A DNA stretch of 64,000 nucleotides from assembly GCA_030704615.1 (NCBI GenBank), contig CM060732.1:55614001-55678000 (forward strand), given 5' to 3'. Shown piece after piece: positions 799 through 64,000 of the stretch (positions within the stretch are counted from its first letter, which is position 1; each line of letters opens with the position of its first letter). Made by a program: the position numbers and the translations under genes. Source of the stretch: Takakia lepidozioides. Its lineage: Eukaryota > Plantae > Bryophyta. The notes beneath the pieces are model-generated. The model saw only the letters and a list, made by a program, of their open reading frames with translations, ran no database searches and had not been told where the DNA came from.

Positions 799-983
799 TG
801 TCGCGCGCATACATATCGCTACACAACTACATCGCTGTCTAAAACCACACAACATATGTGCACACCAAACACTAGTCTATCACTAGTCCACCACTAGTGC
901 ACCACTAGGCTGCCACTAGACAACCACTAGCCACCACTAGTGCAGCCACTAGTCCACCACTAGGCTGCCACTAGTCCATCACA
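799..983 (-). repeat. Short LTR-like unit 'A' (TG...CA), second copy, with internal CCACTAG microrepeats
   Basis: Near-identical to 1284-1446; minus strand starts TGTGATGGACTAG and ends GCGCGACA. Confidence 0.65.
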
Positions 984-984
984 A

Positions 985-1160
985 TGATAAGGAAAGAAAT
1001 AATGCAAACATACAAGCTCTCTCAAACTCACACACTCGCACATGAACAAATCACTCATATATTAAGTCGATGGGGAATCCACACTACGGCGCCATAGCGA
1101 GACGCGGTGAGGCTCAACTCGAGAAAGATGAGCCCACCGCGATCTGTCGTGAAGATAACA
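985..1160 (-). repeat. LTR-like terminus 'B' (TGTTATCTTC...), partial copy
   Basis: Reverse complement of 9797-~9992; both copies begin at the same TG. Confidence 0.6.
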
Positions 1161-1283
1161 ACATCAGGTGCCCAAACATGTATTGGCCCCTGGATTGACA
1201 CTTGGATCAATCCCAAATGTCAATATATAAAAGCTAGCTATTTCCTAGCTAACTTCACACTTGTAGTAAAATAACTTGACAGT

Positions 1284-1446
1284 TGTCGTACGTATACATA
1301 TCGCTACACAACTACATCGTTGTCCAAAACCACACAACATATGTGCACACCAAACACTAATCTATCACTAGTCCACCACTAGTGCACCACTAGGCTGCCA
1401 CTAGACAACCACTAGCCACCACTAGTGCAGCCACTAGTCCATCACA
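1284..1446 (-). repeat. 3' LTR of DNMT-gypsy copy 1 (about 163 bp)
   Basis: Begins TGTG right after the polypurine tract; ends ACGACA where similarity to the 799-983 copy stops. Confidence 0.7.
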
Positions 1447-1458
1447 ATCGCCCCCCTA
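1447..1458 (-). promoter_or_regulatory. Polypurine tract
   Basis: TAGGGGGGCGAT immediately 5' of the LTR TG on the minus strand. Confidence 0.75.
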
Positions 1459-1563
1459 GCTGGCGCTTAGGTCCCTCTAAGTCCAGGTAGCCACAAGATG
1501 TAATAGTGGCCATAGCCTCACTAAGTCCTCCACCACTGTCCCTACTACACTCAAACTCAATAG

Positions 1564-1819
1564 ATCAAGAGGCCGGGTACAAGAGTTGCCCCATCGTTAG
1601 TCGCCGTCTTGCAACCTGGTATCCCAAGCAATATGGATATAACCAATCTCCATCAGGAACCCTCTCAAGAGGTGGTGTCAAGCATCCCATGTGTCAACCT
1701 CTTGAGCATCGATCACACACCAGCATAGTGCCGGCACCACGAGCATGCCCACATAGCATGCAACGCAACCCTGCAGGTACCACTGCAAGGGTGGGATCTA
1801 TCATCCCATCCACATGTGG
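1564..1819 (-). pseudogene. Integrase C-terminal PHD finger (degenerate; absent from the ORF track)
   Basis: Manual translation RCMLCGHARGAGTMLVCDRCSRG*HMGCLTPPLERVPDGDWLYPYC = C4HC3 pattern, with a TGA stop at the Trp position (1694-1696) and one Cys>Tyr. Confidence 0.85.
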
Positions 1820-2200
1820 AATGCAGCCCCCTCACTAGCCTTGTCAGGCAATGGAACCAACTCAATCCACTTGGAGAAGTGCTCCACCATCACCAACACA
1901 TATCTGTGGTGGCGCATCGTCAATGGCAACGGCCCTGCGAAGTCAAGACTCCACCTGTAGCCCAATCCCATGATAGGTAATGGATGCAACTGTGGTGTAG
2001 CGGCGTTGAATGAAGCACGCACCCTGTCACACACCATACACCTAGCCACGAACTATTGCACCTCTGTGTGCATACCACGCCACCAATACTGCCCCTGCAG
2101 TAAACTATGAGTGCGTCGCACTCCAAAATGCCCCAACTCCTCATGGGCATGCCGCACTAACCATGCACGCTGTGTTGGGTGAGGCACGATCCTCACCCGA
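1820..2200 (-). pseudogene. Integrase zinc finger and start of catalytic core (rest of core deleted)
   Basis: HAHEELGHFG...WWRGM...CMVC, WSLDFAGP, VEHFSKWIE. Confidence 0.9.
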
Positions 2201-2559
2201 CCATCCTCCCACACTCGAAGCAGATGTATCTCCTCCCACTTGAACCTCTTGGCTTGTTGCAGGATCCGATCCCTCTCCTTGGCAGTCACACTAGTTGTCG
2301 TGTCTCCAATGCGGAGGTAGTCCAACACAACCGAATCCTCATGTATATCTCTGGCACCACCTGGCTCATCACTAGCCTCAGGGTCCTCAGATACCCCGTC
2401 TATAGTCATCCCTGTTGTATGTCCAACCTGACCTCCCGATGCCAAGATACACAAAAAGGCAGATGCATGCCATCCCGACACCATCTCTTTGTCTGTCTCA
2501 CCATGCCACCGAGCTCCAGTGTCATCCTGCTGGCTCGTGCATGGATTGCGACTCAATCC

Positions 2560-3540
2560 ATCTGCATTCCTATTGACCAAACCCGGTCGATGCACAACCT
2601 AAAAGTCATACTCTTGGAGTATAAGTGTCCACCATGCAAGCTTCCCCGTAAGCTTGTCTGACTTCATCAACCACTTTAGTGGCTGTTGATCCGTGACAAG
2701 ACTGAAGAGATTGTCGTATAGATAGTACCTGAAGTGTGTCACGGCCCACACTGCAGTTAAGCACTCCCCCTTATATGAGCTAAACTTAGACTCTGCAGCG
2801 TTGTTCGAGCGGCTAGCATAAGCCACTACGAACTCTCTTCCCTCATCATCTACCTGTGTGAGCACCGTTCCAAGCCCCAGCATGCTCCAATCTGTATGCA
2901 CCTAAAAGGGACGCCCCCTGATAGGTCGTCTCAAGATCGGCGCCGAGGTCAACCTCGCCTTGAGCTCCTGAAAAGCTCGCTCTTGCTCATATTTCCACTG
3001 CCACTCCTGGTCTACCTTGGTTAGCTTGGTTAGAGCCTTTGCAATAGCACTAAATCCCTTGACAAACCGTTTATAGTAGTTTGCCAACCCCATGAAAGCT
3101 CAAACTCGGCTCACATCCGTGGGACGTGGAATCTGTGTGATGGCCTCTATCTTAGTCTGCTGCACCCCCAATCCTCCAGGATATATCATGTGGCCCAGAT
3201 ACTCAATCTGGTTGTGGAAGAACTTGCACTTCCCCGGATGTAATTTCAATCCGTGCGCTCTCAAGCGCTCAAACACCACCTGAAGGTGTCTCTCATGCTC
3301 CTCCACCGTAGCACTAAAGATGATGATGTCATCTATGTAGCACCGAGCAAAGTCTACCCCTGCTAGAATCCTGTCAATGACTCTCTGGAACTCTGCAGGG
3401 GCGTTCTTAAGCCCGAATGGTAAGAATCGCCACTGATATAGGCAATCCTTCCCGTGCTCATTGATCCCCCAGAATGTCGTCTTCTGCTTGTCCGCCTCCT
3501 TGATCGGCAACTGGTGATATCCAGACCACAAGTCCAGAGT
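2560..3540 (-). pseudogene. Gypsy RT (C-terminal part) and RNase H
   Basis: LDLWSGYHQ, PFGLKNAP, YIDD, YLGH, GLANYY, HTDWS, GECLTAVWAV, TDQQPL; several stops. Confidence 0.92.
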
Positions 3541-4345
3541 GTTGTTGCCGGTGTCTGCAATTCGTGGATATCAGCAGGCCTTGCCAGCAGACATCTCTTT
3601 GCTGGGGGCGCAGGATTTGGAGAGGGTTGGCTCCATTGATTTGGTAGTGGCAGGTTGGCCCTGCCAAGGGCATTCATCAGCCGGGCATGGCAATGGATTG
3701 CGAGACTCGAGGTCGGGTCTGTTTTGGGAGATGGTGTGGGTTTTGCGTCACTTACAGCTTCATCAAGTTGTATCTCCAGCATACATCTAGGAGAATGTGC
3801 CACTGATGGGCAATTCTCGGGCCAGGGTGATGGCCAGTATGCATCGAGTCCGGTCGTGGCTTGGGTCAGCTGCTGGATGCAGCTGCAGTGGGGTCACGGG
3901 CTCATCGTCCACGATTATGGTGGACTAACTTGATGCCACCCGCACTGCTCAAGCGTGCATTTGATGGGGTGCAGCGGCCAGCACACCTCACAGTGGATAG
4001 CATTTTGGACACAGGGAGGCAGTCTCAGCGTGTGAGACACGATGACCGTTTGTCTTTGGCAGTGGTCAACAAGGTGGGTTAACCACGAGCAGCACTACCT
4101 ACACTGCTCAGCTTCCCAGGATCGCATGCTTTCCGGGATGGTGGACCTAGCCTCCTGTGGGATGCTCAACTGCAACAGTTAGTGGAACCTAATGCCGACG
4201 AGCGAGAGCGGGCTATGGGTTTTTCCACTGGGACCACGGCGGTGCCTTCTCTTTCTGAGGCATCACGTCGTCAGGTGTTGGGGCAAGCGATGGATCTCAA
4301 TTGCTTGACCTGGATTATCCGCTTAGCTATGGCTGAGCAACGCCA
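3539..4345 (+). pseudogene. DNMT3-like C5-cytosine methyltransferase, motifs IV-X (inside the inverted segment)
   Basis: DLVVAGWPCQGHS, SGLFWEM, YI*ENV, AHRPRLWWTNL, ERERAMGF, RRQVLGQAM; stops and a frameshift. Confidence 0.9.
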
Positions 4346-4542
4346 CGGGGTGTAGACATCCATGGCATACGTGGGATGTGCTTGAGGTTCAGAGGGAGTT
4401 GGCAGCCAAGGCGGCTGTGATGGATGAGGTTGGGGATTCTTCTCGGGTTGAGGAGGTCCTCAAGGATGAGATGATGGGGCAGGATGAGGCCTTGTCATCA
4501 ACTGAGCAGGCAGGGAGTACTGCTCATGAGGTTGCGGCATAG

Positions 4543-5035
4543 CAACCACGGGACGCGTCTCCTACCTCTAAGTTTGCTGGACTTAAGGTTGCAGTTACAG
4601 AGGACAATTGGGAGCCTGACATTGGACCCATTGTCACTGGAGGAGAGAGACGACGTATATGGCGATTCCTGAGGGCTTACAGAAATTGCTTTGCCTTCAG
4701 TTTGAAGGATTTGGGAGCACTGAAGGGTCAGGAGATTCGTATTGAGTTGGCCATGAACACGCCAATCTTTCGGAGACCCTATAGATACAGTGACATGGAG
4801 AGGTCTTTGATTCAGATGAGGACTCGAGAGCTCTGGGAGGCTGGTTTGGTGGAGCTCTCTGGTGGAGAGTATACTTCAGCCACGGTGATGTCAGCCAAAA
4901 ATGATGTCTATGGCAATTGGACGGAGAGACGTATGTACGGTGATTACCGGCCTATAAATCGTCAGACCAAGTCTGATAAGTATGCCATGCCCACACCGGA
5001 GGAGATCTTTGATGCCATTGGGCATGCCAAGGTGT
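4543..5035 (+). pseudogene. Linker and RT N-terminus (inside the inverted segment), in frame after TAG 4540-4542
   Basis: PIFRRPYRYS...RMYGDYRPIN...DKYAMPTPEEIFDAIGHAKV; joins TLDLWSGY on the minus strand at ~3540. Confidence 0.88.
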
Positions 5036-5941
5036 ACTCGTATAACTGCCTGTAGAACAACAGCCAACCCGGTGCTGATCCCACCAAACAAGTCCAGAAG
5101 GCAAATGCCTTCATCCGGACACTGCCACACAATCGATGTGGTGTCCAATGGTGACAACTGAGGTGGTCTTGGTGCAATCCCTACACTGTCCTCCTCTCCT
5201 GACGGTACAAAAGCCTCTACCCAGGCTTGTTGCACACGACAATCAGCAACCCGCTGCAAATCCTTGCTCGAACCCCACAATGGAGTGTGAGCAACCATGG
5301 TAGGCAACTCCGTCATACCATACATGTCATCCTACTCTCCCGGAGGTGACACATCCTCTGAATGAGTGTTGCCATCCAACAACTCTCCAGGCCAAGTCAC
5401 TACAGCTGTGAATGCTGCCAGTGTTGGCATTTTGCCTCGCTGGGCAACCGCAACTCCTCCTATGAACGTCACAGGGAGCTGCACATGCCGGCCCTCCCTT
5501 GACTGTCATCCAGGCCTATAAGAAGCTGACTCCTCCCAAAAATCCAGGGTGAAGCCCATGGGGTATAACACTGCCCCACCAACAAGGACATCGTACGAGA
5601 CCGCGTCTGTCACAATGGCCTTGGCTCTCATCACTGAGGCATCTATAGGATGATTCGGCTGTAGTCTGATAGTCAACTCACGCCGTGTCATGCCCTGATC
5701 CTGCTCTAATCCTCCAAGAGATGTTTGTATCTGGAAAGGGCACAGCTCCATATCCACCTCCGTGAGGCCCAAGCCTGCAATAGCAACTTTGCCCAGCATC
5801 AATGGCTGAGCTCCCGAGTCCAACAAGACCCGCAGTGGCCGGTATCTCTTGCCTGCCGGTCCACTCAAACAGAAAATGTCATCCTGGTTGTCTAACATGA
5901 CAACTCCAGGTGTCACCATGGCGCGCTCAATGGCTGGCCTA
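5036..5941 (-). pseudogene. Aspartic protease fused in frame to DNMT motif I
   Basis: ORFs 5506-5919 (VLLDSGAQP, YDVLVG) and 4891-5325 (ICLLDLFGGISTG) share one frame, separated only by point stops. Confidence 0.88.
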
Positions 5942-5968
5942 ATAGGCTTCTGGCAGGGGTGAAATGAT

Positions 5969-9535: not shown

Positions 9536-9796
9536 CAGTGTTGGGCGGTTATTTGATTTCTTTCGTAACCTCCGGTTCCGGTTTCTACAAAATCTTAGGA
9601 TCAAAGATCCTCCGGTTCCGGTTTTTTTCAGATATTTTTAATGGAAAGAACCACCGGTTCCGGTAAATTGTAAGAACCACAAAGAACCGGCGGTTTTCAT
9701 CAAATAACCAGTGGGTCTTTGGCGGATCTTTGACGGTTTTCATGTTGGTTATCTCAAAACTATGTAACCGGCAATAATGATCTTTTGCCGGTTCTT
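9536..9796. mobile_element. MITE/hAT-like end with CCGGTT subterminal repeats, interrupted at 9797
   Basis: CAGTGTTGG start; repeated AACCGG/CCGGTTCCGGTT motifs. Confidence 0.45.
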
Positions 9797-12700
9797 TGTT
9801 ATCTTCACGGCAGATCGCGGTGGGCTCATCTTTCTCAAGTTGAGCCTCATTGCGTCTCACTATGGCGCCGTAGTGTGGATTCCCCATGGCGTGGGGTGCA
9901 CTTGGCTCGACTTAATATACGAGTGATTTGTTCATGTGCGAGTGTGTGAGTTTGAGAGAGCTTGTATGCTTGCATTATTCCTTTCCTTATCACTCGACAA
10001 AGATCAGCTCGAGTCTGTGAGTGTCAGGTTCGAGTTAGTTGTAGCACTTGTGTTTTCAGATCATGAGAAGCGGTTTAGCCTAGAGTGTAGGGAGCCGTGC
10101 ATGAGCCTATCCAAAGCGGATAGAGTGCAAAGGCGAACAGGTTGCAGGTTTGCCATGGGTAGCCTATGTTGAAGATCGGCGTTGCATAGCTCAACGCTAT
10201 GACAACCAAGTTTGGGCTTCTAGTGTGAAGTGAAGGAGATGCTGGCCACGAGTGAGCGAACTGGTGGTCGTCTTCTTCAGCTGCAGGCCGAGTTAGGGAG
10301 CTGCTGAAATGTGGGCTGCGCATGGGAAGTTTAACATGTTGCAGGTTAGAGATGATATGATCAGCTTCAGGTATCTGCCCGAAACGAGTTGTTGCATGTA
10401 CATGAGGAGCAGCCGAATGGCGGAGCTGCGAGGGGATACATCGCAGCCTGTTGGGAGCTGCAGCTCCAAGCTCATGAAGAGGTATGAGTGAAGAGAGGGG
10501 GCTGGTCCCTCTTGTGTGCAAATTAGTGCATTTGTGAAGTATGTGCTTGAGTTGGAAGTTTCAATCTGAAACTCTAGCACGGCGAGGGCTCTTGGAGTGG
10601 CAAGAGTGGGGCTGGAAGGGTAGTAGTGAGGCGTCTTAGAGCCAGGGAATGTGCAGTAGAACTGCAGGTACACCAAATTTATAAAAGTGTGTATTTTCAG
10701 ATTCACTTTTGTGAGTTTCGTGGAGAAATAGAGCTTGTTGGGCAGCATATAGCTTGCTTGTTGAGTTGGGGGCACTTCTAGTGGGCCGTGAGAGCTCAGG
10801 ATTGCAGGACGACGGGGCTGATGGCTCCGCAGAAGCCATAGCTTAGCGGCAGCAGGTGCAGGAGCAAACCCCAGCTTGGGGAGAGCTCGGGAACGCCTCG
10901 GGAACGCATGGGAACTTGTTGGAAGTTCCAGGGAACGCAAGGAATAGTGGCCGTGATGGACCGTTGGGGCGGTATCACGATATACCACGAGCCCAGATCG
11001 TGATGGTTGATCGTGACCGTTGACCGTGACCGTTGGAAGCCGTTGTGCGGACACAACGGGTTGGCACGGTGACCAGATCGTGAGGATGGCGGGCCATGAA
11101 GGCTCGTGGGAGTGGTACCACGGGGTATCACTGGGCAGCCCGTGGCCAACGAGCGCCTAGGGCGGGCCATGAGGAGTAGTGGTGGTTGGAGCCACGGAAG
11201 GCCGCGAACAGTTAGAGTGAAAATAAAAAAATAAAAAAATATAATCTTCTTTCACTCGTGGGACCTTGATGGGGAGGCTGGGCTCTGAAGGACAACGGTT
11301 TTGAGCTAGCTGATCCGGCAGAAAAGTCGGAATTGCCTCCCTGTTATATTTTAACAAAGGGGATTACTTCCCTGCAGGTAATCTTTTCGGGTTTTCAGCC
11401 CAGTTCTTAACTATGGGGAGACCAGCCTGCAGGTAATTCCTTTGGACAGAATGTTGTTGGGGCCTATATGTACCTCTATTTGCTCCATTTTTTAACCTTC
11501 AGTGAACGGCGTGGTTTCCTGAGGTGGTTCCAGAGGAATGGCTGGTGGACGTAAGGAGGCACTGGCGGACCCTGTGGAGGCTTGCATGGGACCTTGGAGG
11601 CCAAGTTTCATGAGCTCGTGGAGGGCGGTTTGAGGAGTGTCTACAGGATGCTCTCATGGTCATGCAAGTGAGAGAAGAGAGGAAAAAAGAGGGTGTTGGG
11701 ATGAGAGCGTGCTGGGGATAGGCATTGCTTTAGTTTCCCTTCCTCGTAGCTTTCCACCTTCTCTGTAGGCCGAGACCTTTCCGTAGGTGGAGGCAAGAGT
11801 CAGTCCGGGTTTGGGCTGGGTTGCAGGAGCGACACTGTGGAGTTGTTTTTGGTGTGGGGGAGTTGTTGTTTTCATTCTTGTGTTTGGATCCCCTCCACAC
11901 CTGCATGCTTGATTGTGCGCCATGCTAGTTTTGTGTGGGCGCTTGATTTTATAGGTGGTGAACTCAGGCTTGATCGCCGATCCCACCCTAGAGCATGCTA
12001 TCGATGGCGAGGCTGGGGTGATGACCAGTCAGACCATCTTTGTTTCTCTTGTGGTGAGGTTGGAGGTGATGACCAGCCAACCATAGGAGTGCCTGCGGTG
12101 GATGCAGGTGCAGGTGCAGGCTATGTTAGGAACCTAGTATTCCAAACCATAAGCCGCATCAGGTTTTCTACCCGGTTACCTTGTGGAGTGGGGGTTAGAG
12201 ACATGTTCATGACCGGTTGAGTGTCAGTTTGTCAACACGGAGGTGCCACTAGTTGCTAGGGAAAGTGCCGGTACGAGCACTAGCGATACTAGCGGGTATA
12301 CGAGACGAGGTGTGCGGTTTATGCCACCTCCACCTCCTGTGTCTTCTACGGAAGGTTCTGATTCAGATTGTGAATCAGGAAGACTCACACCGGCGGTGCA
12401 AGTTGTTTCCTTGCCATTGTTGTGGGACACGATGAAGGAGATGTATGGAGCCACCAAGGGGCCACGAAGGTACTCTAGGGCGGTGGGCACTATTGAGTTG
12501 GATGATTTTATCCAAGAGTTTGATAGTTGGTGTGACAATCCACAACTGTTTACGCCTTTCATGGCATGGAAGGGGTTGTTTCAGCACCTTGAGGGGCCGC
12601 CCATGGACAATTACCATGAGTTTAGGCGGGGGCACGATGTTGAGATCAAGGAGTGGAGGATGTACTGGTCACCCGACTATGTCTCTATCACTAGAGGCAC

Positions 12701-14354
12701 AAGGGCAGTAGCCACACCAGCAGCTGCACCAGCAGCAGCAGCCACAACAACAGCTTCCACGAGTAGTAGTGGGACCAGTGGTACAATAACTACGACGGCC
12801 ACCCAAGCTACTGCTGCACCAGCACCAGTGGCGGTGCCTGCCTTCAACCCTGTTGTGGAGTTCTTCGAAGAGTTGAGAAGAAACTACCAAGGGGTGAGGA
12901 CAGAGAAGTTGAGGAGCTTGCAAGAGTTCCAGAGGAAACCTACTGAGAGCTTGAGGGAGGCTTTCACTCGCATGAGGCGTTTGATAAATGTAACCCAAGG
13001 GGTTACGAAGGCTCAGGCAGTCCAGTTCTGGTACGGGATATTGGACAAAGAGCTGAGGAGAAGGGTGTGGGATGCAACTCTTCTACAAGCGGCCCAACCC
13101 ACCTTAGCAAATGTGTTTTTGCTGGCGGAGCGGATAGAGCTCAACATGGTGGAGGAACGAGTGGTCATGGTGGGATTTGCTAAGGAGGCACCACGGGGTA
13201 GTGGTGCTCCTAGCCAGCCACTACCTCAACGTGCTCAAGGCAGCAAGGGAGCTCAGGTGAAGCCTAGGGAAGGGCAGAGAGGACCTCAGATGCAGGGGTC
13301 TCTCCCTTCATTTGCTAGCCAACAGCGGGCGGATGTGGTATGCTGGACATGTGGAGGACCCCATGTCAAGAAGGATTGCCCAGAGGGAGGCAATGGTTTG
13401 GCACCGGCACAGCCTGCACAGTTGCAATGTGGGCATTGTGGCAAGTACGGGCATGGAGAATCCCAGTGCTATGGTTTGCACCCTGAGTTGTGCCCAGGCC
13501 AGTTCCAAGGGAACAATGGTGGCCGGGGGCGAGGTGAAGCAGCCCAGAGAGGACGAGGTGGCCAGACACGAGGTGTAGGCCAATGACAAGCTCAACATGG
13601 CCAAGGACGCAGAGGTCAGGGTGGTGACCAAGGCATGGCCAACCGGCTTCAGCAGCTAGAGCAGAGGCTCGCTGCCATGACCACAGCTCAGGTGGTACTG
13701 GCTCCAAGGCCGGATGGTCCACCTCCTGCTCCTGAGGGAGGAGACATGAGAGGCATAGGATTAATGTGCGGGGCAACACTACCACTAGTGAGGGGTGCCA
13801 CTACCACTACCACTATGTGCGGGGCAGCACTACCACTAGTGCAAGTGGAGTCAGCTGCGGCAGTGACTCGAAGAGCAGCACGAGTTCCTGAGCCACGGGG
13901 TGCGGAGGTGGAGTTGGATCCACAACGTGGGGAGGCAAGCCGTCAGACCAGGCTTCCTCAGTCATTCACATTGGCGGAGACAGTGTCGACGCCGTCCATG
14001 GCACCTAGTTCTCGCCCGACTGTTACCAAGGCAGAGGTTACTATGCCATTGGGGAGAGCTATACGAGCAGCACCACTACCTAGTGTTGCCAAGGCTATGG
14101 CAGCTAGTGTGCTGCTGGGGGCGGCCACAGCTGTATGCCAAACTCCATTGTTCTCGGCTACCATGATTACGACGCCGGGGGTAAGACCAGCTGAGGTGTT
14201 CAGGCTGGCATCGACACTCTGTGAGAGTGGGGAGGTTACTTCATCTTCTGCGGAGATAGTGGGAGGTGTAGTGCCGGAGGGATCCTCGGATGTGAGGGTC
14301 AAGACTGCCACGGCGGCGCCATGGCAAGCTGTAGCTGCCAGGTTGATGGAGCTG
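9797..14354 (+). mobile_element. DNMT-gypsy family copy 2: LTR-like terminus B, long leader and gag; 3' part lost
   Basis: gag and leader highly similar to 54167-56036; last residues ARLMEL continue into the protease in copy 3; linkage of terminus B to this gag is by adjacency only. Confidence 0.75.
12243..14354 (+). pseudogene. Gag with two zinc knuckles (one internal TGA at 13584)
   Basis: LDDFIQEFDSWC, CWTCGGPHVKKDC, CGHCGKYGHGESQC; ORFs 12243 and 13635 are in the same frame. Confidence 0.85.
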
Positions 14355-43430: not shown

Positions 43431-43451
43431 GTCCCATGTCTTTCATTTCTT

Positions 43452-44020: not shown

Positions 44021-44036
44021 CCCAGTATGGTCGCCA
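44021..44036 (-). promoter_or_regulatory. Primer-binding site TGGCGACCATACTGGG
   Basis: 2 nt after the LTR CA; identical at 53297-53312; cognate tRNA not determined. Confidence 0.85.
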
Positions 44037-44038
44037 AA

Positions 44039-51512: not shown

Positions 51513-52168
51513 TGAGTCTTAGTTCTATACCAAACCATTGATTAAAGCGAGATAATTTGTCAACCTGTCGGTTGAGGTGCTGAGATGTATGTGCTAAAAT
51601 AGCAAGGTCGTCAGCATATGCTGCCGTTGAGATTTCATTGGAGGAGGTTTTATAGTGATAGCCTAAGTTACCTCGGGCAAACCATCGTAAGAGAGGTTCT
51701 AGAAAGATGATGAATAGGTAGGGGCTCAGAGTGTTCCTTTCGATGGTACCAGGAAGGATGGGAATAGGGGGGGTGGAGCCATAGCAGGAGCCTGTGTATT
51801 TAGTGGTGCTATTGGTGTAAATGTTCCCGATGAGTTGGATGACATCTACAGGGTAGCCCATGTCCGCCATGATGGCATGTAGACGTGGGTGGTCCATCGA
51901 GCCAAAGGCGTTTTTGAAGTCAATGTAGAGGAGGTAGATATCTTGTTTGGTAAGTTTGGCGTCTTCTAGGGCAGATAAGACATATTGGATTTGTCTGGTG
52001 GTGCTACGCGTTGCGCGGAAGCCTTCCCAGGGGTCGCTTAAAATACGGTGTTGTTCGCCATAGGAAAATAGCATCGTGGTGAGGGTGCTAGTGAATAGTT
52101 TGTAGATAGTGTTAGCGAGGGCAATGGATCTGTAATTACTGAGGTCGGTGGGTTCGCCTTTTTAAAAT

Positions 52169-54166
52169 GGTTGTAGTCTCAACCTCAGCTGTTGGGTCTA
52201 CTTCTTCATACTCTTCCTCTTCCAATTTCTTCTCTCTATTTTCATCCTCCAAGTTCTGCCCTTGGGTTTCTTCTTCACTCATGTAACTCAACTGCAATGG
52301 TGTTGGAGAGTCTGAACTCTCCGTTGGCTCTGCCACATCCTCTCCTCCTTCTTCACCTTCCGCTTCAGAAACTGGAGTTCCTTCTTTTGGTGTTCCATGC
52401 CAACTCTTATCAAAGATTTCTGTCAAATCTTTTATCCAGGGATGTACCTCAGATCTTTCACCTCGTGATTGATCTTCTTCCCGTACCAATTCCCTTAATC
52501 TTTCTTGCAAAGAAAAAGAAGGAGTGACATCCATCTCTAGTTCTCCCGGTATGGGTGATGTACTTTCTGATCTTAATGGTGTGAGAGGTCCAGATGATTC
52601 CCCTATGTCTATTCCTCTCTCCCAAAGATATAGATAATTAGCTTTCAGATAGCTTTCTCTTTTTGCTGAATATCTCTGGCGTCTAGCTTCTCTTCAATCA
52701 CTCATGTCCCATGTCTTTCATTTCTTTTAATGTGGCAATAACCAAAACTCTCTTCTGTAATATCTCTCATATATGCCTGGGTTTCTTTCAAGCTTCAATG
52801 CACCCTTGGCTATACTAGAAGTCTCCGTTACCATATAACCATATGGCAAACAAGTCTGGAAAGCTGTTCTTGGTGTGAGTTTGATCCACAAAATATCCTT
52901 TGGAATCCAATTCTTTACCAGTACAAGCTCTTCATGCATATGAGTATAAACATTCACCTTTCTTTCCTCCCAGCCTTCAAACTCTACTCGCTTAATGGAT
53001 AGCAAAGCTATCACATAAACCAGTGTTGGTAACCAACGTGCTCTTCCTCTACAGGCCACCTGATAAATCTTTATCACTCTTTTCTCCAGACCCCATTCAG
53101 GGTCAGCATCATGCACTCTCTTAAGAATGTTTTCTTTACAACCGTCTGGCAATTCCAAGAACCTCTGAAAGAATCGTTTGGACAATCTTTCCTTCTCAGT
53201 TTCACAAGGAATTTGATTCACATCAAATTCTTTAATTCTCCAACCACCATGATCCCACCAGATGCCTGTCATATCTGGTTGTTCATGACCCAGTTCCCCA
53301 GTATGGTCGCCAAATGTCGCGCGGCTTTTACTCACCCATCCCTTCGCTATCCGAGGCGGGAACTCCAAGATAGAAGAGTTGGAAATCTCTAAGCACTCAG
53401 CCCGCTCAGTTGGTATTTAAGTATCAGTTTGCTTCAGCAATCTATCGGATTCCATCAACTCATCCATTCATTCCACAGCTTCACTCAGATCTCTCTACAC
53501 AGTGTGAGTATGAAGTATGTATCAGATTAATATCTATCAAGTATCAGGCTGAAGCCATGGAGTCTCTAATCTGCTCTACATTACAACTCTACTGCTTGCA
53601 TTCATCAAGCATCAACAGATCATTCTCCTCCTTCTTCGTGCTCTCCCTCTTTCTGCTCAGAGATGCGCTCTCCGCTTCATTTCCCCCCCAGTGATGTCTG
53701 AAGTCCCCCCAGAAGTGATCATTTTCCAGTCCACGCTCCTGGCTTTATCTTCCTACCCGTTGTTCTAACCGTTTCCCTCACTAACCGTCATCCGTGAACT
53801 AACATGTTCTATTCGTAGATGTTGTTCCCCACAGTCGTTCCCTGTCCTGTTATCCGTTCCCTATGGTCGTGACAGCTGTGTCAAGCTGTGACTGGCTGTT
53901 TGAAACTGTGACTGGATGTGCGACTGTGTTGGGCTGTGTCGGGCTGTGTCGAGCTATGACTGGCTGTGACGGGCTGTGTGGGCTGTGACGGCTGTGTCGG
54001 ACTGTGTCGGACTGTGACGGGCTGTGTTGGCTGTGACGGCTGAGTATCCCCCCCTAAAGTGCGCTGCTGTCACCCCTAAGGCTCCTGTTGGTCTCACTCT
54101 GTGCAAAAATTAAGGGTACCCCACAGATCCCGTAAAAGTGCCTAAGTCCCAGACAGTCCTCTAACA
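52169..54166 (-). mobile_element. Gypsy B 5' fragment: LTR (53315-54166), PBS, ORF0, start of gag
   Basis: Homologous to 42890-45161; abuts the DNMT-gypsy leader at 54167. Confidence 0.9.
52727..53368 (-). CDS. ORF0 of gypsy B, intact frame, unknown function (start codon uncertain)
   Basis: 213-codon frame conserved with 43452-44146. Confidence 0.7.
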   Translation of the reverse strand: MEFPPRIAKGWVSKSRATFGDHTGELGHEQPDMTGIWWDHGGWRIKEFDVNQIPCETEKERLSKRFFQRFLELPDGCKENILKRVHDADPEWGLEKRVIKIYQVACRGRARWLPTLVYVIALLSIKRVEFEGWEERKVNVYTHMHEELVLVKNWIPKDILWIKLTPRTAFQTCLPYGYMVTETSSIAKGALKLERNPGIYERYYRREFWLLPH

Positions 54167-57030
54167 CATACATGCATGCTTGACTGTGCGCCATGCTAGT
54201 TTTGTGTGGGCGCTTGTTTTTATAAGTGATTGGTCCGGATTTGATCACCGGCCAATCCTAGAGCATGTTGTCCATGGTGAGGCTGGGGTGATGACCAGCC
54301 AGACCATCATTGTTTCTCATGTGGTGAGGTTGGAGGTGATTACCAACCAACCATAGGAGTGCTTGCGGTGGATGCAGGTACATGTGTAGGCTATGTTATG
54401 AACTTAGTATTCCAAACCATAAGCCGCAACAGGTTCTCTACCCGGTTACCTTGTGGAGAGGGGGTTAGGGACATGTTCATGACCGGTTGAGTGTCAACAC
54501 GGAGGTGCCACTAGTTGCTAGGGACAGTGCCGGTTCAAGCACTAGCGATACTAGTGGGTACACGAGACGAGGTGTGCGGTTTAGGCCACCTTTACCTCCT
54601 GTGTCTTCTACGGAAGGTTCTGATTCGGATTGTGAATCAGGAGGACTCATACCGGCGGTGTTTCCTTGCCATTGTTGTGGGACACAATGGATGAGATGTA
54701 TGGAGCTACCAAGGGGCCACGAAGGTACTCTGGGGCGGTGGGCACCATCGAGTTGGGATGATTTTATCCAAGAGTTTGATAGTTGGTGTGATTTACAGCA
54801 AATGCGCAATCCACAACTATTTACGCCTTTCATGGCATGGAAGGGGCTGTTTCAGCACCTTGAGGGGCCGCCTATGGATGATTACCATGAGTTCAGGCGG
54901 GGGCATGAGGTTGAGATTGAGGAGTGGAGGATGTACTGGTCACCCGACTATGTCTCCATCACTAGGGGCACTAGAGCCATGAGGGCAGTGGCTACACCTG
55001 CCGCTGCACCGGTAGCTTCAACAAGCAGCAGTGGGACTAGTAGGACTGGTGGTACCGTAGCTACGACGTCCACCCAAGCCACTACCGCACCAGCACCAGC
55101 ACCCGTGCCTGCCTTCAACCCTGTTGTGGAGTTCTTCGAAGAGTTGAGAGGAAACTACCAAGGGGTGAGGACAGAGAAGTTGCGGAGCTTGCAAGAGTTC
55201 CAACGGAAGCCGATCGAGAGCTTGAGGGAGGCTTTCACTCACATGAGGCGCTTGATAAATGTAACCCAAGGGGTTACGGAAGCTCAGGCAATCCAATTTT
55301 GGTATGGGATATTGGACAAGGAGCTGAGGAGAAGGGTGCAGGATGCAACTCTCCTACAAGCGGCCCAACCCACCTTAGCAAATGTGTTTTTGCTGGCAGA
55401 GCGGATAAAGCTCAACATGGTGGAGGAACGAGTGGTCATGGTGGGATTTGCTAAGGAGACACCACGGGGTAGTGGTGCTCCTAGCCAACCACTACCTCAA
55501 CGTGCTCGAGGCAACAAGGGGGCTCAGGTGAAGCTTAGGGAAGGGCAGAGAGGACCTCAGATGCATGGGTCTCTCCCTTCATTTGCTGGCCAACAACGGG
55601 CGGATGTGATGTGCTGGATATGTGGAGGACCCCATGTCAAGAAGGATTGCCCAGAGGGAGGCAAAGGGTTGGCACATACACAACCTGCACAGTTGCAGTG
55701 TGGGCATTGTGGCAAGCACGGGCATGGAGAGGCCCAGTGTTATGGTTTGCATCCTGAGTTGCGCCCAGACCAGTTCCAAGGGAACAATGGTGGCCGGGGG
55801 CGAGGTGGAGCAGCCCAGAGAGGACGAGGTGGCCAGTCACGAGGTGCAGGCCAAGGGCAAGCTCAACATGGCCAAGGACGCGGAGGTCAGGGTGTTGACA
55901 AAGGCATGGCCAACCGGCTTCAGCAGCTAGAGCAGAAGCTCACTGCCATGGCTACAGCTCAGGTGGTACCGGCTCTAAGGCCGGATGATCCACCTCTTGC
56001 TCCTGAGGGAGGAGATATGGGAGGCATGGAATTCATCACTACAACAGATTGCGGCTCTTATGACTCCCATGGGTGCGCAGTCATGACAGATTTGTGGCAG
56101 AAATGCCATTTGCAGTCGTAAAATGCTTTTGAAGTCATAATGCAGGTCTGGAGAAGGCGTATATGCGACTGCATGGCTTCGGACTCTACGCAACACAGGT
56201 CAAACATGTTTGACCACGAATATTGGCATGGCAGATATGACTACCAGTCACGGTCATGGCTACACTGGAATGACGTGTGCATATTGCAAGACAGACATAT
56301 GACTTCATGACTCTCACTCTAATGCATTATGCCAGATCATCACATGGATGAATCACTACATGACTACACGTGTCGACACATGCTTTTCTGGTTATATATA
56401 TAATATATGAGTATTTATATCTTAAAAAAACAGAGACTCTTACCAACTAGGATGAATTAAAAAAAACCCAAAAAAAACAAAGATTTAAAAAAAATCACAT
56501 CGGCTGGTAAGTGCACAGTGTGTCGCCCTTGTGGTTTGGGGTTCAAACCCGCTGCCCTTATCCCGTGTGTGGGATTGTTCGAGACGGTATGTCTTGACGT
56601 TGATCGTCCTGTAGGTCATATGGCCCATAAATGAAGGCGGGTGAATTTTCCCCCTCCTCAAGGGCTTGTGGTTTCCTTTAAGAAAAAAAAAAAAAAAAAA
56701 AAAAATCAAAAAGGGGCTTTTAGGGTTTACAAAAAGGTTAAAAAACTTAAAAAGTTGCCCATCACGGTAGCGTGAACAGACTTAGAGCGAGCGGGAGGGA
56801 GGGAGAGAGAGAGAGGGTTGGGACTTAGAGCGAGCGAGCGGGAGAGAGGGCAAACATGCATGGGAGGCCCGCAGTTGGATCAACCTTCGCATCTGGAGCA
56901 AGCAACCCTAGAAACGCTAGGGTATGTGTGCGAGGAGGTTTCGGCTGGGAGCCCGCCGTTCTTGGGAGAGTCAGCTTCGTCTTAGCAGGCCGTGTTTCAA
57001 TCTCTACCCGCTCGGCCCTGATTTTACAGC

Positions 57031-59420
57031 ACGGAGCAGAGCTGGCATGACTTTCTAAAAGATCCTTCACGATGGTGGGACTACCGCAATCGCAAGGTGT
57101 GGCTTTTTCTTAATGTACGATGTGAAGAAGTTTGTCCATCCTGCAAATGTGGGTTGGCTCTCCTGTTAGTACCATGATTTGGTATTCTTCCTGATGTTTA
57201 CAAGGTTCTTGGGAGAGTTAGCTTGGTCTTAGTAGGCCGTGTTTCAATCTCTGCCCACTCAGCTGCACCGTGATGGTTCTCACTGACCAATCCGACATTA
57301 CCTAACTACAGACACAAGCAGCACACACTAGAGGTCATCTTGGGTTCATGTTCAGTCAAATCCTCCATGGGTCATGACACAAGATCGAGGACAATGTGGT
57401 GAGGGCACCTTCTTCTTCGACCTATTTCAGCCTATTTTGCCCTCTCATCAGACTCGGCCTTGAATTTGAATCATGGAGCAGAGCTGGCATGAGTTTTTTT
57501 AAGATCCTTCACGAGGGTGCGACCGCAATCGCAAGGTGTGGTTTTTTTTTAATGTACGATGTGCAGAATTTTGTCCATCCTGCAAATGTGGGTTGTTGGC
57601 TCCTGTTAGTACCATGATTTGATATTCTTCCTGATGTTTACAAGGTTCTTGGGAGAGTCAGCTTGGTCTTAGCAGACCGTGTTTCAAAGTCTGCCTGCTC
57701 AGCTGCACCGTGGTGCAGGTTCTCACTGACCAATCCGACATTACCTGACTACAGACACAAGCATCACACACAAGGTCAAATCCTCCATGGGTCATGACAC
57801 AAGGTCAAGGACAGTGTGGTGAGGGCACCTTCTTCTTCGACCTATTTCAGCATGTTTTGCCCTCTCATCAGACGCCCTGAGATGCATATTGAATTTTGTA
57901 AGTTAGCTCATTGCTCGTTGATAAGTAGGGTTGGGGGTGTTTGCTGGAACAATTCTAGGCTGTCATTGTCAGCTGCTAGCAGGAAGGCAAGGATGTATGC
58001 ATAGATAGCTGAAGGATTTTGTGCAGAGGCATAGATAGCTGAAGGAGCAGGGATAGAGTGTGGGCCCAAATTTGTCCAAGAGGGCCGGATTTCAAGCTCC
58101 ATTATTTCAGTGTCATCCATTCAGCCAGGGATTTCCTGGTGACATTGCCAAGGCTTTACTCGCAACATGATGCTTGTAAAGCTTCCTTAGCTTGAATGCT
58201 GATTATGCTTGAATTATTAGGTTTGTAAAGCCAGTTTTGAAATTTTCATGGTAATCAGCTCTCTTGAAAATCTGTAGGTTGCAAGCCATTTACAGCGGGT
58301 CGTGGGTGGACTGGAAGACAGCCATTGAAAGTCCTGGTGCAAGTTAATACCAGTGGAGAGCAGAATAAGCTTCATATTCCCTTTTGGTGCTAGTTATGTT
58401 CATGTATGGTACTGTTGAACACCAACAATCTTTTGGTGAGATTCTGTCTTGGTGCACATGTCTGATAAAGAAAGACGGTAATGTTTGTTCTGAAACCTGA
58501 AGGCGTGAAATGATTCAACACAACAAGAGCATTACGCGTGTCACAGTACAAGCTGTAAGAAAGCAAGAGATACATAGTTATACAGTCAAACAGACAACTA
58601 TCAGTTTCTGTGGAATCTCTTGCCAATGGCAGGATGGGTTGGGAATAGCCAAGTCAGGAGGTGAATGCTTGTCAAATTACCACATGTCCTTTTGAACACT
58701 GCCCCTGCCCTGGTGGACATGTACGCCAATTGTGGGTGCATTGAGGATGCAAAGGGAGTGTTCAACACTGTGGCTGAACGAGATGTGGTGTCGTGGAGTG
58801 CGATGCTTGCTGGGTATGCACAGCTGGGGTGCGGGATGGAGGCTCCAACCTTTGAGAAAATGATGGGGGAAGGGGTGAAGGCCGCCGACATAACGTTTGT
58901 GTGCGTTTGCAGCCCTGGAAAAGGGCAAAGAGATCCCTGGTGACATCATCAAATCTGCAATTGTACCAGATGTCATCCTGAACATGGCTCTGGTGGCCAT
59001 GTATGCTAAATGTGGGAGCATTGAGGATGCCAAAGGAGTGTTCAACACTATGGCTGAACTAGATGTGGTGTCGTGGAATGCGATGCTTGAAGGGTGTGCA
59101 GAGCAGGAGCGCGGGATGGGGCTTTGGACACCTGAAAGCAAATGATGGAGAAAAGGATGAAGGTACCTTCTTCAACATATTTCACCTTGTTTTCCCTGCT
59201 AGTGTTTGCTTTGACAATTCTAGGCTGTCATTGTCAGCTGCTAGCAGCAAGGCGAGGATGTATGCATGATTTGTGCAGAGGCATGGATAGCTGAAGGAGC
59301 AGGGATTTCGTGTGGGTCCCGATGCATCCAAGAAGGCCAGATTTCAAGCACAAGATTACCTGTGATTCCCTGTGGATCAATAGCTACAAGAAACCTGCAT
59401 GGGTAGATGGTCAACTGGGA
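57031..59420 (+). pseudogene. Fragments of OSB-type PDF motif exons
   Basis: TEQSWHDFLKDPSRWWDYRNRK|GT (57031-57096, duplicated at ~57475); HPRRPDFKHKITCDSLWI...PAWV (59320-59410). Confidence 0.7.
58690..59150 (+). pseudogene. PLS-PPR motif fragments
   Basis: ALVDMYANCGCIEDAKGVFNTVAERDVVSWSAML; ALVAMYAKCGSIEDA...SWNAML. Confidence 0.85.
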
Positions 59421-62384
59421 GCAGCGGCACAAGTGATAAAATCAGGCACTGCTAATGAAGGCATCTTCTTCAACACATTTCACCCTGTTTTTCCCTCTTA
59501 TCAGAATCGGCCCTAAATTTACATGTTCAATTCTGCAAGTTAGCTGGTTGAGTGAATCTAGTTTGGAGTGACTTTGACATGATACTGCCAATGTGACAAC
59601 AGGAAAGTGTCAAAAAATAGGTAACAGAGATGAAGAGAAGCTGTGGAATGAATACTTATCTGAGCCCAGTCACTGATGGGTCAACCGGGGCAGAAAGGTG
59701 AATGCCTGCTACATTTCAGAGAGTAGCGGACGCAATTCAGCATAGGAACTAGTGTGCTACGCTGAGTTGGGTGTTTCCTAGAACAAATGTAGGCTGTCAT
59801 TGTCAGCTGCTAGCAGCAAGGCAAGGATAAATGCTTGATTTGTGCAGAGGCATGGATAGCTGAAGGAATAGAGATAGAGTGTGGGTGACGCAGGGTGCTG
59901 GGCAATGGGCAAGATGTCTTTGTATAAACGTGAGTGACATTTTTATCATCCTGGGTTTCATTTTTAGTGCATGTTTCTTTGTGAAGTATCTGACGACTTC
60001 GCCAATACACACCAACCTTTTTGCTTTGGTTTGTTTAGGACATGGGATAGAAGTTACCATAAACAACACTGGCATTGGTTTTTCATATATGGTATTAGAT
60101 AATTCTCTTAATTGTTTCCGCCTTGGCACGTTGCTCAGTGACCTTCCCTGGACGCCTTGGAGTATAGCGAGTGAGTGTCTCACAATGCAATATTGGTTGG
60201 TGCATCTTATGCAAGAACTTGGAAAACAAACAAATGTCCTTGTTGTAGTAATTCTTAAAGCCATGCAAGCCGTTTTTGATGGGTTGCAGATTGATGGAAT
60301 ACATGAGTAGTTAGAAGATTATGGGTGAACACTTTTCAAAGTGTTATAGTTAGACAAAATAATTCACATGAGAACATGCGACTATTTAATGTATTTTTAG
60401 ATTGCAACAAAAATAATAATGATAAATAGATTGATGGTATGCAATCTCTTGGTTTTGCTCAGCTTGTTGCAGTTATGTCTTGCTGCCTTGTTCTCTTTGT
60501 ATTACATATTATATTTCATTGTTGTAATAGACATGTACATGACTGCTATCATAGTCATAATAATGACTACAACACCTCAGTTGGTCTTACCCCCGGCGTC
60601 GCAATCATGGTAGCCGAGAACAATGGAGCCTGACACACAAATGTAGCCGCTCCTAGCAGCACACTAGCTGCCGTAGCCTTGGCAATACTAGGTAGTGGTG
60701 CTACCCGTGTAGCTCTCCCCAATGGCATAGTAACCTCCGCCTCGGTAACAGTCGGGCGAGAACTAGGTGCCATGGATGGCGTCGACATTGTCTCCGCCAA
60801 TGTGAACGACTGAGGAAGCCTAGCCTGACAGCTTGCCTCCCCACACTGTGGATCCAACTCCACCCATCAGCAGATTGACATGTGTCATGATGGGTTTTGG
60901 GGTGTATTGCTATTTTTTACATATTTGTATTTCTGCCACGTGGTGTAGTACTATTGGAGAGTGGCAGCTACACTCTATGAGAGTGTGGAGGTTACTTCGT
61001 CTACTGCGGAGATAGTGGGAGGTGTAGTGCCGGAGGGATCCTCGGATTTGAGGGTCAAGACTGCCACGGCGGCGCCATGGCAAGCTGCAGCTGCCAGGTT
61101 GATGGAGCTGCCAGCTAGGCCAACCATTGAGCGCGCCATGGTGACATCTGGAGTTGTCATGTTAGACAACCAGGATGGCATTTTCTGTTTGAGTGGACCG
61201 GCAGGCAAGAGGTACCGGCCATTGCGGGTCTTATTGGACTCGGGAGCTCAGCCATTGATGCTAGGCAGAGCTGTTATTGCAGGCTTGGGCCTCACGGAGG
61301 CGGATATGGAGCCTTGTCCTTTCCAGATATAGACGTCTCTGGGAGGATCGGAGCAGGCTCGGGGCATGACACGGCGTGAGTTGGCTATCAGACTACGGCC
61401 GGATCACCCTACAGATGGCTCAGTGATGCGAGCCAAGGCCATTGTGACAGACGCGGTCTCATACGATGTCCTGGTTGGTGGGGCAGTGTTGTACCCCATG
61501 GGCTTCACCCTGGATTTTTGGGAGGAGTCAGCTTCCTATAGGCCTGCATGGCAATCAGGGGAGGGCCGGCAGCTCCCTGTGACGTTCATAGGAGGAGTTG
61601 CGGTTGCCCAGCGAGGCAAGATGCCGACACTAGCAGCATTCACAGCGGCAGTGAGTTGGCCTAAAGAGTTGCTTGAGGGCAACCACGTGTAAAAACTGAA
61701 ACGCGCCACGTGTTGCAACCGGATTAGCACACTCGTAGTCATAGTTTGCAGCCATGGAGAGCTAAACACTCTGCCACGTGTCATTTCCTGCATCGAGCAC
61801 GTGCCACTCTTGCACAGCCGCTGACATGGACTACACTGTCCGTTCAGTCATTCAGTAAAGCTAGCGTGTATGACTACCCCCACAGCTGCTCTGGCGCAAC
61901 GTGACAGCCAGCCTGGAGAGTCATATCTGCCATGTCACAACTGACTAGGTCTTTACGTCTGCAGAGTCAGAAGGTCGTAAATGGCTTCCATGACTGCATT
62001 TGCAGTCATAACACAGAGACGTAAAAGCCGCAATTTGTTGAAGTGCATGTGTGGAGCAGCACTACCACTAGTGCAGGTGGAGTCTGCTGCAGCCGTGACT
62101 CGAGGAGCAGCACGAGTTCCTGAGCCATACGCTCATTCAGAGGATGTGCCACCTCCGGGAGAGCAGGATGACATGTATGGTATGGCGGAGTTACCTACCA
62201 TGGTTGCTCAGACTCCATTGTGGGGCACGAGCAAGGATTTGCAGCGGGATGCTGATAGACGGGTGCAACAAGCCTGGGTGGAGGCTTTGGTACTATTAAG
62301 AGAGGAGGAGAGTGCGGGGATTGCACCAGGACCACCTCAGTTATCTCCATTGGACACCACACCTATTGTGTGGCAGTATTCGGA

Positions 62385-63350
62385 TGAAGGCATTTGTCTT
62401 CTCGACTTGTTTGGCGGGATCAGCACCGGATTGGCTGCTGTGATACAGGCAAGTGTACGGGTTCGGCGTTACCTATATGTGGAGAGGGATGAGACTGCAC
62501 GACGCGTTTCACTTCACCATGTTGGTCAGTTGGTGCAGCGGTACCCTGAGTTGTTGTCGGTGTCTGCAATTCGTGGATATCAGCAGGCCTTGCCAGCAGA
62601 CAATTCGTTGCTGGGGGCGCAGGATTTGGAGCGGGTTGGCTCCACTGATCTGGTAGTGGCAGGTTGGCCTTGCCAAGGGCATTCATCAGCCGGGCATGGC
62701 AATGGATTGCGAGACTTGAGGTCGGTCTGTTTTAGGAGATGATGCGGGTTTTGCGTCACTTGCAGCTTCATCAAGCTGTATCTCCAACATACATCTTGGA
62801 GAATGTGCCATTGATGGGCGATTCTCGGGCCAGGGTGATGGCCAGTGTGCATCAAGTCCGGTCGTGGCTTGGGTCAGCAGTGTTGCTAGATGCAGCTACA
62901 GTGGGGTCATGGGCTCATCGTCCACGGCTATGGTGGACTAACCTGATGCCACCTGCACTGCTCAAGCGTGCATTTGATGGGGTGCAGCGGCCAGCACATC
63001 TCACAGTGGATAGCATTCTGGACACAGGGAGGCAGTCTCAGTGTGTGAGACACGATGACCGTTCGCCTTTGGCAGTGGTCAACAAGGTGGGTCAACCACG
63101 AGCAACATTACCTACACTGTTCAGCTTCCCAGGATCGCATGCTTTCCGGGATAGTGGACCTGGCCTCCTGTGGGATGCTCAGTTGCAGCAGTTAGTGGAG
63201 CCTAATGCTGACGAGCGTGAGCGGGCAATGGGTTTTACCACTGGTACCACGGCGGTGTCGTCTCTTTCTGAGGCATCACGTCATCAAGTGTTGGGGCAAG
63301 CAATGGATCTCAATTGCTTGACCTGGATTATCAGCTTGGCTATGGCTGAG
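62385..63350 (+). pseudogene. Complete-length DNMT3-like C5-cytosine methyltransferase domain (one frameshift near 62727)
   Basis: I LLDLFGGISTG; II YLYVERD; IV DLVVAGWPCQGHS; VI YILENV; VIII AHRPRLWWTNL; IX ERERAMGF; X RHQVLGQAM. Confidence 0.92.
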
Positions 63351-64000
63351 CAACGCAGAGTGCGGAGTACACTTCCCTCGATGGTCTCTCTGCCTACCGA
63401 GACGGTACAGGCAGTGAGTGGGGGCGAGCATGTGAGGACCACGGGGTGCAGACATCCATGGCACACGTGGGAGGTGCTCGAGGTTCAGAGGGAGTTGGCA
63501 GCCAAGGTGGCGATGAAAGATGAGGTTGGGGATTTTTCTCGGGTGGAGGAAGTCCTTGAGGATAAGATGATGGGGCAAGATGAGGCCTTGTCACTGACTG
63601 AGCAGGTAGGGAGTACTGCTCAAGAGGTTGCAACATAGCAACCACTGGACGCGTCCTCTACCTCTAAGCCCACTGGACTTAAGGTTGCAGTTACGGAGGA
63701 CAATTGGGAGCCTGACATTGGACCCATTGTCACCGGAGGAGAGAGACGACGTATGCGGCGGTTCATGAGGGCTTACAGGAATTGCTTTGCCTTCAATTTG
63801 AAGGACTTGGGAGCACTGAAGGGTCAAGAGATCCGTATTGAATTGGCCACTGACACGCCAATCTTTCGGAGACCCTATAGATACAGTGACATGGAGAGGT
63901 CTTTGATTCAGATGAGGACTCAAGATCTCTGGGAGGCAGGTTTGGTTGAGCTCTCTGGTGAAGAGTATGCTTCAGCCACAGTGATGCCAGCCAAGAAGGA

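Follow-up and report, generated by a model that had tools for sequence, protein, structure and literature searches.

The stretch of DNA analysed here (the window) comprises 64,000 bp of the genome of the bryophyte Takakia lepidozioides (assembly GCA_030704615.1, contig CM060732.1, positions 55,614,001 to 55,678,000 of the forward strand) and consists of transposon-rich plant DNA. It contains two copies, gamma and alpha/beta, of an abundant Ty3/Gypsy retrotransposon family, in which the domain order is Gag, protease (PR), a DNMT3-like cytosine-5 (C5) methyltransferase (DNMT), reverse transcriptase (RT), RNase H (RH), integrase (INT) and a PHD finger. Both copies are dead, decayed members of this family, and their terminal repeats are made of two segments, A and B. 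The features assigned to them are as follows.

54167..56030, + strand: copy gamma, last part of the 5' leader, followed by gag with its zinc-knuckle region (89% identity to 11896-13760; tblastn with Marchantia protein P0006)
60571..60864, - strand: copy gamma, inverted C-terminal piece of gag (91% identity to 13907-14200)
60962..61683, + strand: copy gamma, last part of gag and the aspartic protease (LLDSG), which contains a stop at 61330
61684..62128, + strand: copy gamma, inserted sequence and a displaced piece of gag (62047-62127)
62386..63338, + strand: copy gamma, DNMT3-like C5-methyltransferase domain (family profile, fold)
63636..63644, + strand: copy gamma, conserved in-frame stop TAG CAA CCA in a readthrough-type context, between Gag-PR-DNMT and RT
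63639..64000, + strand: copy gamma, first part of RT, continuing beyond the window (tblastn with Marchantia P0006)
9796..10005, + strand: copy alpha/beta, 3' remnant of the 5' repeat A1, then a 12-nt stretch complementary at 11 of 12 positions to a site inside A
12432..14354, + strand: copy alpha/beta, gag, containing a stop at 13584 and interrupted at 14354 by another Gypsy element
5032..5946, - strand: copy alpha/beta, protease, linker and DNMT motif I (from P0006 residue 596 onward)
3541..5040, + strand: copy alpha/beta, block in inverted orientation that comprises DNMT motifs IV-X, the conserved stop (4540-4548) and the N-terminal part of RT
1550..3543, - strand: copy alpha/beta, remaining part of RT, then RNase H, a partly deleted integrase and the PHD finger, interrupted by stops
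799..1457, - strand: copy alpha/beta, 3' end, with polypurine tract (1457-1451), B1 (about 1448-1284), junction GACA-AC-TGTC (1287-1278), A2 (1281-984) and B2 (982-799, ending in GACA)

In copy gamma, gag carries a frameshift near 54765 and breaks off at 56030, where unrelated sequence begins. Its protease and methyltransferase are separated by 445 nt that were inserted or displaced (61684-62128), and the methyltransferase is frameshifted near 62725, right behind motif IV. The initial annotation assigned the span 54487..64000 to the family; about 4.5 kb of it (56031-60570) is foreign to the element. Copy alpha/beta is interrupted by stops, a gap of 5 nt and an inversion within it, and contig depth falls beyond approximately position 780, past its 3' end. 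Its gag (12432-14354) stops at residue 595 of P0006 and the protease at 5946 begins at residue 596; therefore, the alpha/beta pieces probably belong to a single element that a second inversion has divided. The two methyltransferase copies are 92.6% identical over 808 nt. A C5-methyltransferase with canonical motif order between protease and RT, as initially annotated, was found at 62386-63338 (+) and, in the second copy, at 5032-5112 (-) joined with 3541-4345 (+); however, neither copy is in frame, owing to the frameshift, stops and inversion. In runs X1, X3 and X5, contigs connect 3541 with 5032/5033, the two lying on opposite strands, and loose contig ends at 3541 and 5941 run on into the expected neighbours, indicating that the normal family order is gag-PR-DNMT-RT and that the inversions are peculiar to the window copies or to the assembly. 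Short inversions and displaced pieces are dense in both copies (3541-5040, 5947-14354, 60571-60864 and 62047-62127) and may reflect real rearrangement or assembly chimerism.

The window domain contains the motifs LDLFGG, GWPCQ, LENV, AHRPRLWWTNL, ERERAMGF and LGQAM in this order, and the catalytic PCQ reported for both copies is indeed kept in each as GWPCQ. When a profile of 20 relatives was compared with solved structures, DNMT3A (5e-20) and DNMT3B (5e-17) scored above DRM (3.5e-9) and HhaI (3e-5). The structure predicted for P0002, a relative and not the window protein (pLDDT 74.9, pTM 0.79), had DNMT3A as its best fold match (E 3.8e-16), and all 36 matches listed were DNMT3. Judged from the profile and the modelled fold, the domain is a non-permuted DNMT3-like methyltransferase whose nearest solved relatives are DNMT3, in line with the earlier proposal that it is DNMT3-like and not permuted like DRM. 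A search with PF00145 gave a divided result: the window pieces reached 18.2 bits against a cut-off of 22, the C-terminal piece having no match, while nine of ten longer relatives passed. Phage methyltransferases match the domain at 24-31% identity, down to E 1e-15. Among 78 domains left from 142 after dereplication, a set used for the DNMT tree and holding no host DNMT3, the catalytic cysteine is present in 77, the glutamate of ENV in 76 and the two arginines of motif VIII in 74 and 75.

The methyltransferase is under purifying selection. The two window copies differ by 32 synonymous and 26 non-synonymous substitutions over 273 codons (binomial p 1e-6), which bears out the synonymous bias noticed at first. 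The corresponding ratio of non-synonymous to synonymous rates (dN/dS) is 0.25, well away from 1, and is comparable to those of gag (0.30), protease (0.36) and RT (0.34) in the same copies. Among three relatives from metagenome and genome contigs (L030, L031 and L081) the domain yields values of 0.073, 0.089 and 0.12, and closer, decayed pairs give 0.09-0.50.

The initial annotation described gag, protease and methyltransferase as one frame and placed the methyltransferase in frame between protease and RT. The methyltransferase does end the Gag-PR frame, but in this lineage a conserved stop cuts it from RT. The sequence TAG CAA CCA occurs in both window copies (at 63636 and 4540), about 300 nt past the domain and in frame with RT. 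In L030 and L081 two long open stretches share one frame and are divided by a single TAG (TAG CAG TTA and TAG CAA TCA, respectively), which is kept although dS exceeds 1 and synonymous sites are near saturation. Within one clade a homologous stop was found in 21 of 23 chosen loci (15 TAG and 6 TAA), followed by CAA in 20, some of these loci being duplicate assemblies, and many database proteins terminate 75-160 residues past motif X. As read from these comparisons, the stop at 63636/4540 is a conserved family feature, not a product of decay. A UAG-CAR-YYA context is the leaky readthrough signal of tobamoviruses and SIRE1 elements, and a stop context of this type is present in the window copies, L029, L030, L031 and L081. 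The methyltransferase would consequently be made at the level of Gag, a point absent from the initial annotation, and RT-RH-INT-PHD only by readthrough. In one Sphagnum-type clade the context is instead CAA CCC ATG, so reinitiation is possible there.

The homolog searches show that the domain belongs to a family and not to a single locus. The first search returned 56 relatives, including 18 labelled Marchantia, two labelled Calypogeia and three labelled Sphagnum, the closest named ones being from Calypogeia (75% identity) and Marchantia (72%); thus, a methyltransferase-bearing Gypsy family is present in land plants. The second returned 60 long proteins, mostly of the order RT-RH-DNMT-INT-PHD, two of them labelled Haematococcus and one Chrzof1, which is presumably Chromochloris. 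In these chlorophyte relatives the methyltransferase follows RNase H and lies beside the integrase, whereas in the bryophyte type it lies between protease and RT; the PHD finger ends the polyprotein in both. Among the best 150 cluster representatives, RT or RNase H precedes the methyltransferase in 65, and in 14 it is located after protease or before RT. In metagenome loci, RT was found downstream of the methyltransferase in 55 of 80, with none found downstream in the rest. Phylogenies of RT-RH (46 rows, dereplicated from 57; a quick tree with SH-aLRT support only and no reference RTs) and of the methyltransferase (78 rows) both recover the RT-RH-DNMT type as one group (SH-aLRT 99) and both place the window copies with Marchantia, Calypogeia and Sphagnum-type sequences. 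Summed contig depth in runs X1, X3 and X5, which is not a copy number, was similar for methyltransferase, RT and integrase, where it exceeded that of the flank about a thousandfold. In run X12, whose RNA type is only guessed, RT was covered and three methyltransferase bins were not; this run was not used as evidence.

No relative was found in IMG/VR. The single match in GTDB genomes, L081:1-6206, is an intact member with a single stop (TAG CAA TCA) inside a cyanobacterial metagenome bin, and is most likely a contaminating plant or algal contig. None of the homologs returned was labelled Klebsormidium, including those of a search aimed at that genus (two proteins). Several Marchantia and Sphagnum gene models (P0004, P0005, P0006, P0047 and others) correspond to the Gag-PR-DNMT frame of these elements and not to host genes, and some were named DNA (cytosine-5)-methyltransferase by their source. 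In L011 (6332-6445) and L014 (6342-6455), on the - strand, the leader of one copy has received the B end of another copy of the family in reverse orientation.

The broken and oddly rearranged state of both window copies, with inversions that are either real or errors of assembly, is what would be expected if a host DNMT3 had been captured once, or assembled artificially, with no role in transposition. Set against the relatives from both searches, their named liverwort, moss and chlorophyte sources, the congruent RT and DNMT trees, the purifying selection and the normal order in contigs of three runs, this explanation is extremely improbable, and the doubt raised at the outset that the domain might be a one-off host-gene capture is thereby answered.

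The ends of the elements are unusual, being arranged as A-coding-B-A-B or A-coding-B and not as two full direct long terminal repeats (LTRs). In the window, a portion of A is found again upstream of gag (9796-9993), and identity between the repeats is 95-97%; the initial annotation did not include the split repeats at 799-1448. The A-coding-B-A-B layout was found in the window and in L036/37, L044, L047, L052 and L055, with B-A-B 3' ends additionally in L010, L045/46, L068 and L075; counting the window, ten distinct 3' ends are of the B-A-B type and nine stop after B1. B ends with GACA and A begins with TGTC, so that the internal junction, GACA-NN-TGTC in the window and most loci, matches the ends of the element. 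All 24 5' ends (22 distinct flanks) start with TGT(C/T)ATG, and B lies upstream in none of them. Exact 4-bp target duplications (CATA, GGTC, CCAA, CCAC and TACA) flank five of seven distinct two-ended insertions, all in relatives, the 5' end of the window copy having been lost. A polypurine tract and TG...CA termini are present, as are the HHCC and DDE motifs of the integrase, with DDE intact in L030. No match to a recombinase was obtained, nor any long antisense open reading frame (ORF) able to hold one in six elements, and no hidden endonuclease ORF was found in the elements examined.

B2 joins A2 exactly, with an overlap of 0-1 nt, at the positions that the priming site and the polypurine tract define. 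The 12 nt behind A are complementary to a site within A at all 12 positions in three of seven loci, where a TATA-like box precedes this site by about 30 nt, and at 11 positions in L002 and the window. An ordinary LTR followed by a chance tandem partial LTR was also considered for the 3' end and was rejected once the layout and joins of the loci had been compared. Together, the split ends and the matching internal junction suggest that a circular cDNA is opened within the LTR and integrated.

Split ends could also arise without a circle, if the integrase cuts linear or multimeric cDNA at internal junctions, or if template switches on B-A-B RNA rebuild the repeats, as proposed for split-repeat DIRS elements. 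The nine distinct 3' ends of the A-coding-B kind would equally be expected from linear cDNA cut at both junctions, and random opening of a circle leaves the missing A-B-A-coding-B class unexplained. The exact B2/A2 join at the priming-site and polypurine-tract points is, however, what is seen in cDNA joined end to end, and we regard the origin without a circle as rather unlikely. Three observations count against the replication scheme set out below: target duplication is absent in L044 and only three of four positions match in L019; the complementarity expected for self-priming is only 9-10 of 12 in L036, L037 and L052; and A-B-A-coding-B, which a circle cut at either junction should produce, was found at none of the 24 5' ends.

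Taken as a whole, these data make it rather probable that the window copies are decayed Ty3/Gypsy elements in which the Gag-protease frame ends in a DNMT3-like methyltransferase, likely packaged and likely methylating the element's own cDNA before an insertion that likely proceeds from a circular form. Transcription would begin within repeat A and the RNA would prime itself; Gag-PR-DNMT would be made abundantly, and RT-RH-INT-PHD through readthrough of the stop codon. Reverse transcription would yield BA-coding-BA, whose ends would then be joined into a circle to be opened by the DDE integrase at the internal GACA-NN-TGTC. A circle with two repeats would give A-coding-B-A-B, and a circle with one repeat, or later recombination between B segments, A-coding-B. 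Methyl marks may disguise or protect the cDNA, or may set the chromatin state at the insertion. More tentatively, and with somewhat less than even confidence, the family may be seen as an old Gypsy lineage, extending from chlorophytes to liverworts and mosses, with a working methyltransferase at the level of Gag, that primes itself and circularises, the DDE integrase opening the circle at a site inside the LTR, a mode of replication not known to be described among LTR elements; the methyltransferase may mark the circle and perhaps choose the junction.

The element's own cDNA is a best guess for the methylation target, given that the domain lies on the Gag side, that its chemistry is conserved and that DIRS enzymes of dinoflagellates act on CG in yeast (PMC5890265). 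Several points weigh against this or other parts of the explanation. The stop is absent in a second clade (most of L038-L080) and in proteins P0112, P0155 and P0157, so Gag-level expression is not universal. The observed/expected ratio of CG dinucleotides is 0.41-0.54 in the methyltransferase element and 0.18-0.22 in a Gypsy of the same window that has no methyltransferase; being less depleted than this neighbour, the element displays no excess CG decay and thus no footprint of self-methylation. The loci were retrieved through the methyltransferase, so sister elements devoid of it could not appear, and several loci represent one insertion assembled twice. In 17 of the 78 domains, E-C or D-C stands where P-C is expected in motif IV. 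Finally, when assayed in yeast, the domain from Klebsormidium produced no methylation, a result that its authors call inconclusive (PMC5890265).

The lack of excess CG loss would also fit an enzyme directed at host chromatin or the insertion site, for example guided together with the PHD finger of the integrase, or one that disturbs host silencing. The PHD finger closing the polyprotein in both bryophyte-type and chlorophyte-type elements, and the methyltransferase adjoining the integrase in the latter, point the same way; in the present lineage, however, a location on the Gag side of the stop is a better fit for cargo of the particle than for a partner of the integrase, and we consider a host target unlikely. 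Retention of the domain for a non-catalytic function, such as binding nucleic acid in the particle or the GACA-NN-TGTC junction, or for action on RNA, would agree with the variable motif IV and with the inactivity of the Klebsormidium domain in yeast (PMC5890265). Against this stand the nucleophilic cysteine, the glutamate of ENV and both motif VIII arginines, which are nearly invariant across domains of 33-50% identity, as in a working enzyme, and make such a role quite improbable. Methylation of the element's own cDNA stays the preferred candidate function.

Elements of this kind are known from the alga Klebsormidium nitens, where KnitGypsy-Dnmt3, a Gypsy element with Dnmt3 and DIRS-like repeats, was described as an acquisition of that lineage (PMC5890265). 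The family in the window resembles it in the Gypsy domain set, the non-permuted Dnmt3-like domain, purifying selection and the A-coding-B-A-B repeats, and probably belongs to the same lineage, the two having been likened by description and not by sequence. In KnitGypsy-Dnmt3, the methyltransferase lies in the Pol ORF together with RT (PMC5890265), whereas here, in land plants, a conserved stop stands between them; a single ORF with RT, as in KnitGypsy, is seen in relatives P0112, P0155 and P0157. Target duplications, the internal junction and self-priming were found here and are not described for KnitGypsy-Dnmt3 in the passages of that report considered here (PMC5890265). The Symbiodinium elements SymbioDIRS-Dnmt3, which has A-coding-B-A-B repeats and performs de novo CG methylation in yeast, and SymbioLINE-Dnmt likewise carry a C5-methyltransferase on a retrotransposon, but they rely on tyrosine recombinase integration or are long interspersed nuclear elements (LINEs) (PMC5890265), while the present family has a DDE integrase, TG...CA termini and 4-bp duplications. 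Split-repeat elements of the DIRS/PAT type in general use a tyrosine recombinase and leave no target duplication, in contrast to the rve integrase and 4-bp duplications found here.

The Ty3/Gypsy order, the lack of a tRNA primer site and an occurrence in non-seed plants or algae are shared with the self-priming chromoviruses Tcn1 and Tf1/Sushi and with Chlamyvir (PMC6317226), and the present family may prime itself as well; Tcn1/Chlamyvir chromoviruses, however, carry a C-terminal chromodomain, whereas no chromodomain match was obtained here and the polyprotein ends after the PHD finger. In the main text of that paper the term 'PHD' does not occur and 'methyl' occurs twice, once concerning histone lysine (PMC6317226). 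The DDE integrase of foamy virus cleaves palindromic, CA-NN-TG-like junctions of 2-LTR circles; it acts at the join between the two LTRs and thereby restores ordinary ends (PMC1180852), while here the site lies inside the LTR and the insert is permuted. In the full-text literature searched, which covers few subscription papers and not Repbase, no bryophyte or chlorophyte members, stop or internal attachment site were reported, and the term 'KnitGypsy' occurred in one paper only; supplementary material of PMC5890265 and PMC12344493 may be relevant to this. PMC12344493 places such DNMT3s in 'streptophytes', citing the 2018 work, and its supplementary trees may hold bryophyte copies; PMC10952607, in the passages considered, mentions no such elements. 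The present analysis adds to the known type its bryophyte and chlorophyte relatives, the conserved stop, and TG...CA split ends with 4-bp duplications and an internal junction.

The remainder of the window contains a second Gypsy family, free of methyltransferase, at 14355-20530 (+), 33275-43442 (-) and 52136-53416 (-), whose two long copies are 94% identical; one copy sits inside gag of the methyltransferase element. Both long copies have 30-nt tandem repeats behind the integrase, and the copy at 33275-43442 is followed by extra ORFs at 33805-35589 (594 amino acids, coiled-coil-like) and 35529-36649 with no Pfam match. The leader of this family (42893-44133, 52168-53409 and 31394-32168) contains an antisense ORF of about 230 amino acids (52727-53416), also with no Pfam match, in two to three copies. 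A PLS-type pentatricopeptide repeat (PPR) gene with E and E+ motifs lies at 24170-26593 (+) and 58700-59120 (+) in several frames and breaks off where a DYW-like region begins, and further PPR fragments occur within the span assigned to the methyltransferase element. Like the closest named relatives of that element, this gene is a sign of land-plant, probably bryophyte, DNA. A LINE-type RT fragment (49174-52161, -; PF00078, E 1e-18) is accompanied by downstream ORF pieces.

What a retrotransposon gains from carrying an enzyme of silencing has been an open question since 2018, when such elements were known only from algae that are hard to manipulate. It becomes testable through the close relatives found in Marchantia, a genetic model for which methylation mutants exist. 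The permuted ends would hide such elements from finders that seek paired LTRs, and some annotated bryophyte 'DNA methyltransferase' genes are actually copies of them. The breadth of the family, which spans liverworts, peat mosses and chlorophytes with two positions of the domain and congruent trees, speaks for an old function that has been retained and against an oddity of Klebsormidium.

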